458 nucleotides of DNA from Escherichia coli (GTDB lineage: Bacteria; Pseudomonadota; Gammaproteobacteria; Enterobacterales; Enterobacteriaceae), in NCBI RefSeq assembly GCF_003334305.1, contig NZ_QOWS01000076.1. One strand, 5' to 3'. How positions within the stretch are numbered: position 1 is the first letter of the stretch; the number at the start of each line of letters is the position of its first letter. The translations under genes and the position numbers were made by a program. Below are positions 1-458 of this stretch, piece after piece. Below the pieces are notes generated by a model. The model was not told the origin of the DNA and did not search any database. It saw nothing but the letters and a program-made list of their open reading frames with translations.

Positions 1-458
1 GGGTATGACGCTGCCGGGCGCATCACCGTGCTGACCAACGAGAACGGCAGCCAGTCCACGTTCCGGTATGACCCGGTCGACAGGCTGACGGAGCAGCGTG
101 GCTTTGATGGCAGGACGCAACGTTACCATTATGACTTGACCGGAAAACTCACGCAGAGTGAAGATGAGGGGCTTATCACCCTCTGGCATTACGATGCGTC
201 AGACCGTATCACCCGGCGCACGGTGAACGGCGACCCGGCGGAACAGTGGCAGTATGATGAACACGGGTGGCTAACCACCATCAGCCATACCAGTGACGGC
301 CACCGAGTGTCGGTCCACTACGGCTATGACGATAAAGGCCGCCTGACGGGCGAACGGCAGACGGTGGAGAACCCGGAGACGGGGGAGATGCTGTGGGAGC
401 ATGAGACGGGGCATGCGTACAGCGAACAGGGGCTGGCGACCCGTCAGGAGCCGGACGG
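1..458 (+). CDS. Rhs-family YD-repeat protein (polymorphic toxin shell/core region), internal fragment; partial at both 5' and 3' ends
   Basis: Frame 1 is open across the whole window (152 complete codons, no stop), while + frames 2 and 3 hit stops almost immediately (TGA at nt 32-34 and nt 6-8). The translation contains six recognisable YD-repeat units with Y-D dipeptides at codons 2-3, 23-24, 44-45, 64-65, 85-86 and 109-110, each followed by a G/D-R-L/I-T-like motif (e.g. RYDPVDRLT, RYHYDLTGKLT, WHYDASDRIT, YGYDDKGRLTG). GC is about 62% by hand count, consistent with the established GC-rich Rhs core. The paralog (rhsA/B/C/D-like) cannot be resolved from an internal core fragment, so no gene symbol is given. 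Confidence 0.92.

Follow-up and report, generated by a model that had tools for sequence, protein, structure and literature searches.

Why does a 458-nt stretch of DNA from an Escherichia coli assembly (the window, meaning the whole stretch analysed) have 62% GC, and does this composition record a foreign ancestry? A first-pass annotation had read the window as part of a GC-rich, horizontally acquired Rhs core, with a hand count of 284 G+C. The exact recount agrees (G=158, C=126, A=108, T=66; 284/458 = 62.0%). Descriptions of the GC-rich Rhs core go back to the early 1990s, and it serves as a standard case of atypical DNA in E. coli, with little discovery value as such. The quantitative checks reported here back the classical interpretation, and place the event before the split of E. 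coli and E. albertii.

An internal fragment of an rhs gene beside T6SS genes

The window can encode protein throughout in only one frame. Frame +1 runs without a stop over bases 1-456 (152 codons), the other five frames are interrupted by stops, and the longest minus-strand ORF, at 47 aa, is nothing meaningful. The translation covers positions 644-795 of the 1261 in the NCBIfam model NF041261, 'RHS element core protein' (E=1.9e-90, 304 bits); the curated cutoff of this equivalog model, 2000 bits, is meant for the whole protein and is out of reach for a fragment such as the window. Tandem YD (RHS) repeat units on the plus strand account for three matches to Pfam PF05593 (RHS_repeat), at 4..117 (aa 2-39, YD at aa 2 and 23, i-E=3.5e-9), 130..222 (aa 44-74, YD at aa 44 and 64, i-E=7.7e-4) and 253..357 (aa 85-119, YD at aa 85 and 109, i-E=1.3e-5), and the NCBIfam model TIGR01643, YD_repeat_2x, matches at aa 2-43. 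An Rfam search of the window gave no match, and a search for DNA repeats gave no meaningful ones. The proposed identity as Rhs core is therefore well founded on the family and repeat matches.

When 5,426 complete E. coli genomes were searched by megablast, many chromosomes were found to contain the complete 458-nt window at 100% identity, in every case within a gene annotated 'RHS element core protein', which confirms the enterobacterial source that had been proposed. A match of any kind was present in 3,708 of the 5,426 genomes, and only 271 records matched at 99% identity or more. Most of the matches are 80-95% identical, because they represent paralogous core subfamilies.

In E. coli strain 510016 the window corresponds to bases 20001-20458 of the extracted locus (L001), within the 4,500-nt rhs coding sequence at 18066-22565, and its plus-strand frame (1..456) encodes residues 646-797 of the 1499-aa protein WP_097346590.1. 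The full protein scores 2554 bits on NF041261 (positions 3-1261), passing the cutoff of 2000. It has six stretches that match the YD/RHS repeat, a Pfam DUF6531 domain at aa 48-124, and a TIGR03696 Rhs-associated core-end domain at aa 1177-1254 (82 bits), which lies outside the window. The motif DPLGL is present in the translation, as in the PxxxxDPxGL core/tip junction region. Pfam gave no PAAR family match in aa 1-350, although aa 6-9 read P-A-A-R. Relatives of the full protein in the PDB include Tse5 (8cp6, E=4e-113) and the Rhs entries 7q97 and 8qja-8qjd. By homology to these solved effectors, the core would fold into a beta-shell enclosing a variable C-terminal toxin, which a T6SS spike would deliver. 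The toxin tip has no Pfam match; it weakly resembles the CdiA-CT tRNA nucleases (PDB 5j5v, 5j43 and 8zyc; E~2e-6). The AT-rich tip and the small ORF after it occupy L001 21828-22942.

The gene order in strain 510016 is T6SS genes - hcp - vgrG - rhs - small ORF - ISAs1 - yafV - ivy - fadE, with hcp and vgrG directly upstream of rhs and tssA-tssK adjacent. The small ORF (378 nt, 125 aa) overlaps the rhs stop codon. This is the usual position for an immunity gene, which the ORF is presumed to be, and its product has no NCBIfam family match (37% GC). An ISAs1 family transposase lies further downstream. We compared this locus with six further E. coli alleles (L054-L059), and found the small ORF and ISAs1 downstream of rhs in these alleles as well. 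The hcp/vgrG and T6SS arrangement recurs in five of the six, the T6SS being mostly deleted in L059, where the left island boundary reads dnaQ, tRNA-Asp, then T6SS remnants.

Several rearrangements were noted at these loci. In strain LZYWN_4 (L059 9725-11920), a deletion has removed nearly all of the T6SS that would separate tRNA-Asp from rhs, leaving rhs intact; fragments of VasL and of ISAs1 remain, along with an ORF that is annotated 'RHS element protein dsORF-h1'. In strain 510016, an IS1A insertion (L001 9090-11717) splits tssF of the adjoining T6SS, and the system meant to deliver Rhs is thus probably inactive in this strain. Two alleles have tandem extras downstream: L054 (16496-27411) has ISAs1 in three copies plus another complete rhs core gene, and L056 (17292-23028) has a pair of rhs fragments that are truncated at the N-terminus and differ in their tips, neighboured by ankyrin, sel1 and YdcD genes. 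Extras of this type match the 'displaced tip' array of Jackson et al. (PMC2935791).

The contig history of the window also deserves comment. Most of its database relatives are annotated 'RHS repeat protein, partial' and lie on contigs of 250-800 nt in draft assemblies of E. coli and Salmonella; one of these contigs is 458 nt long. Given this pattern, the window is probably a collapsed-repeat mini-contig, and a 458-nt contig of 62% GC in an E. coli assembly is best taken as a collapsed rhs repeat and not as contamination. Enterobacterial rhs cores were also found on short contigs assigned to unrelated phyla, including an 'Akkermansia muciniphila' MAG (L005, SFDX01000073.1) and a Lentisphaerae MAG (L007), and further ones in an Oscillospiraceae MAG (L008) and in Streptomyces griseoloalbus (L031, a 544-nt contig). 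The L005 contig also holds the end of a vgrG gene 99.4% identical to that of E. coli. All four are almost certainly mis-binned or contaminant contigs from E. coli or other enterobacteria, and atypical GC content and repeat collapse probably helped to misplace them. The practical lesson is that rhs fragments get mis-binned into unrelated MAGs.

GC content against host, neighbours and protein content

For the host background, the same E. coli chromosome was sampled at three unrelated 50-kb stretches, with 50.6-51.6% GC (pooled, 51.2%). Windows of 458 nt drawn from them have a mean GC of 0.512 (SD 0.048), a 99.9th percentile of 0.605 and a maximum of 0.616, and none of the 148,629 reaches 0.62. 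The contrast that had been drawn between a GC-rich core and a host of about 51% GC is borne out by these numbers. The opposite case had also been considered, in which the source genome itself has about 62% GC and the window encodes a generic YD-repeat protein rather than an enterobacterial Rhs; the YD-repeat proteins of many high-GC bacteria do match their hosts in GC content. However, the window is identical to E. coli chromosomes at 458/458 nt, the sampled host stands at 51.2% GC, and the high-GC relatives are just 31-40% identical in protein, such that we give this reading virtually no credence. A high-GC source organism for the window is ruled out by the exact E. coli matches.

Closer to the locus, the native genes to the right (16 kb) have a mean GC of 0.521, and 1.1% of their 458-nt windows reach 0.62; for the T6SS genes to the left the mean is 0.552 and the share 4.2%, and hcp-vgrG averages 0.555. 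A GC content of 62% is rare in the host genome but not unique. We also noted nearly core-level values in the same island, at vasI (63.4% GC) and tssH (59.3% GC; L001 610-4115). Parts of the T6SS island, even the whole of it, may share a compositional history with the core.

The high GC content extends well beyond the window. The whole rhs gene has 61.0% GC, and when the core (aa 1-1254) is divided into 458-nt windows the mean is 0.635, with 73% of windows at or above 0.62; the window itself falls at the 27th percentile within the core, slightly under that mean. At the core end the composition changes abruptly, from 0.631 GC (GC3 0.739) over aa 1-1290 to 0.480 (GC3 0.368) in the tip, aa 1291-1499, and 0.370 in the downstream ORF; the tip, immunity ORF and ISAs1 segment together average 0.390. 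The locus thus has what defines an Rhs element in the sense of Hill, both the GC-rich core followed by an AT-rich extension and the ISAs1/H-rpt-type element with a small downstream ORF. The expectation that the window would stand out from its flanks holds for the 3.8-kb core against the neighbouring genes, but not for the window against its immediate flanks, which belong to the same core of the same gene and show no contrast.

Within the window (1..458, part of this 3.8-kb block of mean 63.5% GC), GC over 100 nt ranges from 0.51 to 0.67, and the values at the three codon positions (GC1/GC2/GC3) are 0.64/0.46/0.76. The coding strand is purine-rich, with 58% A+G, and toward the 3´ end, at 301-458, both the GC skew (0.23-0.34) and the AT skew (0.31-0.46) are positive. 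The skews and the purine richness probably reflect the Gly/Glu/Thr/Arg-rich codons of the repeat stretch.

Could the amino-acid content of the YD repeats (Gly, Arg, Thr, Asp) by itself force a high GC content, with no signal of ancestry? The window protein is indeed rich in Gly (10.5% vs 7.7%), Arg (8.6% vs 5.5%) and Thr (11.8% vs 5.4%), and the core has a GC2 of 0.50 against 0.41 in the host. We separated the two contributions with a host codon usage compiled from the 78 long ORFs of the background samples, whose coding GC is 0.533 (GC3 0.587 +/- 0.066, maximum 0.719). Recoded with this usage, the window protein has an expected GC of 0.556, still higher than the mean of host coding sequence (0.533), and the in-frame GC actually found is 0.618; for the whole core, 0.579 is expected and 0.631 observed. 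Of the excess of the window over host coding GC, +0.023 is therefore due to the amino acids and +0.062 to synonymous choice, and protein content covers just 27% of the excess in the window and 47% in the core. By comparison, the deviation of host genes from their own expectation has an SD of 0.023 and does not exceed +0.036. The GC3 of 0.763 in the window, like the 0.74 of the core, exceeds the maximum of the 78 host ORFs (0.719). Moreover, a YD segment from Parabeggiatoa is encoded at 42.6% GC, with a GC3 of 0.35. An explanation by protein content alone is thus largely refuted, and we regard it as very improbable. The tip departs from expectation in the opposite direction (0.565 expected, 0.480 actual).

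The excess in the window is about three-quarters synonymous, with about one-quarter from the Gly/Arg/Thr/Asp-rich repeat protein, and, being mainly synonymous, it resembles a foreign codon signature. Both composition and codon usage lie beyond the host range and are not explained by protein content, as expected of atypical DNA. The comparison with host and flanking values that the first-pass annotation had proposed, made here on the three host samples, gives the same picture, with a GC3 of 0.763 in the window against 0.587 in the sampled host ORFs and a GC of 0.521 in the native flank.

Age and fate of the excess

Relatives in other genera show how widely the excess is shared. A protein search with the 152-aa window returned almost exclusively short E. 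coli and Salmonella fragments. We therefore rely on a scan with an alignment of the window region, taking one genome per species, which yielded 49 loci; its search patterns were biased to the enterobacterial clade. The Enterobacteriaceae hosts compared were E. albertii, Superficieibacter, at least three Citrobacter species, Phytobacter, Yokenella, Trabulsiella, Buttiauxella, Lelliottia and Pseudocitrobacter. Their relatives of the window segment are 57-93% identical in amino acids and have 0.57-0.66 GC (one Yokenella contig reaches 0.70); their GC3 is 0.62-0.89. At the Enterobacteriaceae loci with enough flanking sequence, the GC of the segment exceeds that of the flank by 0.015 to 0.156, the sole exception being an Enterobacter MAG contig (-0.031). 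For Serratia marcescens, the published values are 67.7% GC in the core and 46.4% in the tip (Jackson et al. 2009, PMC2935791).

Distant YD-repeat relatives, at 31-40% amino-acid identity, instead follow the GC content of their hosts: 0.426 in Parabeggiatoa (host 0.416; GC3 0.35), 0.669 in Curvibacter (host 0.660), and 0.66-0.75 in Micromonospora, Streptomyces and Amorphoplanes (hosts 0.68-0.75). Given that these genes match their hosts, the YD fold does not force DNA to be GC-rich, and the excess belongs to the enterobacterial clade of rhs cores and not to E. coli alone. The enterobacteria-biased scan found no close relative beyond the Enterobacteriaceae that might represent a donor lineage, the best being the 31-40% identical proteins.

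The classical reading of such data is that the core lineage comes from a GC-richer background, and that its composition is a relic which has not yet been ameliorated. We consider this the probable explanation and infer a foreign origin for the core. In this scenario, the lineage would have evolved in, or come from, a GC-richer background and been transferred before E. coli and E. albertii separated; its synonymous GC signature is now eroding toward AT at the per-site rates of native neighbours. The claim of horizontal acquisition is thus refined, to an ancient rather than a recent event.

Older phrasing has the element 'recently introduced', that is, acquired by E. coli itself. Several features are compatible with this: the locus is missing or variable in many strains (3708/5426 genomes have a match of any kind), the island adjoins tRNA-Asp, and it has ISAs1 copies. 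In addition, GC1 and GC3 of the core both return a genomic GC of about 63% from the Lawrence-Ochman regressions. At face value, a back-calculated donor GC of about 63% would mean little differential amelioration, which is suggestive only, and the GC1 of one protein is biased by its amino-acid content. Against a recent arrival, E. albertii carries a syntenic ortholog between vgrG and yafV, with 88.9% nucleotide identity over vgrG-rhs and 91.9% over the yafV...dpaA flank, and from this ortholog we take the acquisition to be old. Relatives 57-79% identical in amino acids, mostly with the same excess, are found in at least eight other enterobacterial genera. Finally, Jackson et al. 2009 (PMC2935791) place position 1, the map position of this locus, among the oldest rhs loci, infer it to be ancestral and to predate E. 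coli, and record it in E. albertii. Recent acquisition by E. coli is therefore improbable.

Age also raises a difficulty for the relic reading. The locus is old, given its synteny in E. albertii and the ancestral status inferred by Jackson et al., and a large excess must therefore have outlived a long residence in the host.

Variation in the core is unexpectedly high. The core alleles differ from that of strain 510016 by 5.5-11.5% of nucleotides, compared with 1.2-2.9% for hcp-vgrG, 0.5-2.4% for tssB-C-E and 0.5-2.7% for the native flank. The divergence is block-wise, with identity per 200-nt block ranging from 70% to 100% and blocks of 70-82% lying beside blocks of 96-100%. The core is therefore a recombinational mosaic, which also explains why the whole core is at least 99% identical in 2 records only, as against 271 for the 458-nt window. 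The diverged, mosaic segment spans L001 18066-21900 and was noted with the alleles L054-L059, L006 and L005.

The direction of change was obtained by polarising E. coli polymorphisms by parsimony, with the syntenic E. albertii ortholog as single outgroup. Over all core sites there are 371 changes from G or C to A or T (S>W) and 208 in the reverse direction (W>S), implying an equilibrium GC of 0.50 where the current value is 0.64; third positions alone have 215 and 92, with an implied equilibrium GC3 of 0.60 and a current GC3 of 0.78. The native flank has 106 S>W and 71 W>S changes (implied equilibrium GC 0.43, current 0.53). Since imported mosaic blocks confound an unmasked count of this kind, we masked every 100-column block in which any pair was more than 12% divergent, which kept 900 of 3890 columns (77% masked). 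In the remaining, non-mosaic blocks, 43 changes are S>W and 15 W>S (34 and 10 at third positions). The S>W share is 0.74, close to the 0.70 that native per-site rates predict (p=0.57), and is incompatible with compositional equilibrium (p=3e-4; 58 changes, parsimony). Small as the counts are, and dependent on parsimony, these data support a GC excess in decay, under pressures like those on the host's own genes, rather than one that is being maintained. The decay is relative, since native genes likewise have an AT-biased polymorphism spectrum. An excess that is decaying and not maintained argues for a relic of a GC-richer past, and, together with its largely synonymous basis and its departure from equilibrium, lends support to the foreign origin that had been proposed.

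It is nonetheless worth asking whether the GC content is actively maintained, by GC-biased gene conversion, by recurrent recombination among multi-copy rhs cores, or by selection on DNA or mRNA. The strong mosaicism of core alleles at a single locus, their 5.5-11.5% divergence beside nearly uniform neighbours, the drop from 271 to 2 records at 99% identity, and the persistence of the excess at most of the enterobacterial loci sampled would all fit such maintenance. So would the unmasked S>W share of 0.64, which lies below the native-rate expectation of 0.71 (p=7e-4). However, the non-mosaic spectrum of 43:15 fits native rates and rejects equilibrium, and even with all sites included the implied equilibrium GC and GC3 (0.50 and 0.60) are far under the current values. 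The weaker AT bias of the unmasked data can be attributed to mosaic blocks imported from other, equally GC-rich cores, in which case GC is reshuffled and not created. We consider active maintenance unlikely.

A related possibility is that enterobacterial cores form a hyper-diverse gene pool, whose GC content is buffered by block-wise recombination within otherwise clonal flanks. We hold this unlikely, if somewhat less so than active maintenance. If it were true, the GC-rich state would outlast simple amelioration, with diverged GC-rich cores re-imported within and between loci, perhaps between species. Under the relic reading, which we prefer, recombination among cores of this kind may still make the decay slower.

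Comparison with known Rhs elements and YD shells

The YD repeats of the window are shared with systems of very different kinds. The most distant are the YD shells of teneurins and Tc toxins, which have the repeat type in common with the window; the Pfam match to TEN_YD-shell is weak, teneurin-like PDB entries match at E~1e-25, and these eukaryotic or insecticidal-complex settings have no bearing on the question of composition. Much closer are the solved T6SS Rhs effectors, Tse5 of P. aeruginosa (8cp6), 7q97, Salmonella bongori and other cores (8qja-8qjd) and Tse15 (8uy4). Their YD shells are homologous to that encoded here, aligning best over residues 295-1073 (E=4e-113 to 1e-54), a span that includes the window's 646-797, and they share the C-terminal Rhs-associated core domain with the protein described here. 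They differ in coming from other species and in having other N-terminal and toxin domains.

The nucleotide sequence of the core is ~79% identical to K-12 rhsD and ~77% to rhsB (~21-23% divergent). The cores of RhsG-H are reportedly 22-29% divergent from the RhsA-B-C-F and RhsD-E subfamilies, and RhsG is said to map near min 5.3. The divergence that we observe, together with the yafV-fadE neighbourhood, is what would be expected for the RhsG-H subfamily, and the gene is probably of Hill's RhsG type, going by where it maps and by its divergence at the subfamily level. Its counterpart in Jackson et al. 2009 (PMC2935791) is 'position 1' (dnaQ...fadE), Clade I. A vgrG-linked gene in the T6SS region of ST410 has been named rhsG (PMC10711316); naming is inconsistent, as PMC7216683 applies RhsG to another gene, in EDL933.

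A GC-rich core with an AT-rich tip is already known from Hill and colleagues (1990s) and Jackson et al. 2009. The passage of PMC7259588 that cites Hill et al. 1994 describes E. coli Rhs elements as having a GC-rich core of ~3.7 kb, an AT-rich extension and a presumed high-GC donor, and the passage of PMC2935791 that cites Wang, Zhao & Hill 1998 gives three core subfamilies, rhsABCF, rhsDE and rhsGH, with a G+C-rich core and an A+T-rich extension. Measured against the RhsG-type locus at position 1, with the RhsG label resting on map position and subfamily-level divergence, the locus described here has no material difference. As in that Clade I locus, a small ORF and an ISAs1 (H-rpt-type) element follow rhs, vgrG and hcp lie upstream, and the whole sits between dnaQ/tRNA-Asp and yafV-fadE; as in Hill's E. 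coli Rhs elements (RhsA-H), a GC-rich YD core of ~3.7-3.8 kb gives way abruptly to an AT-rich extension at the core end.
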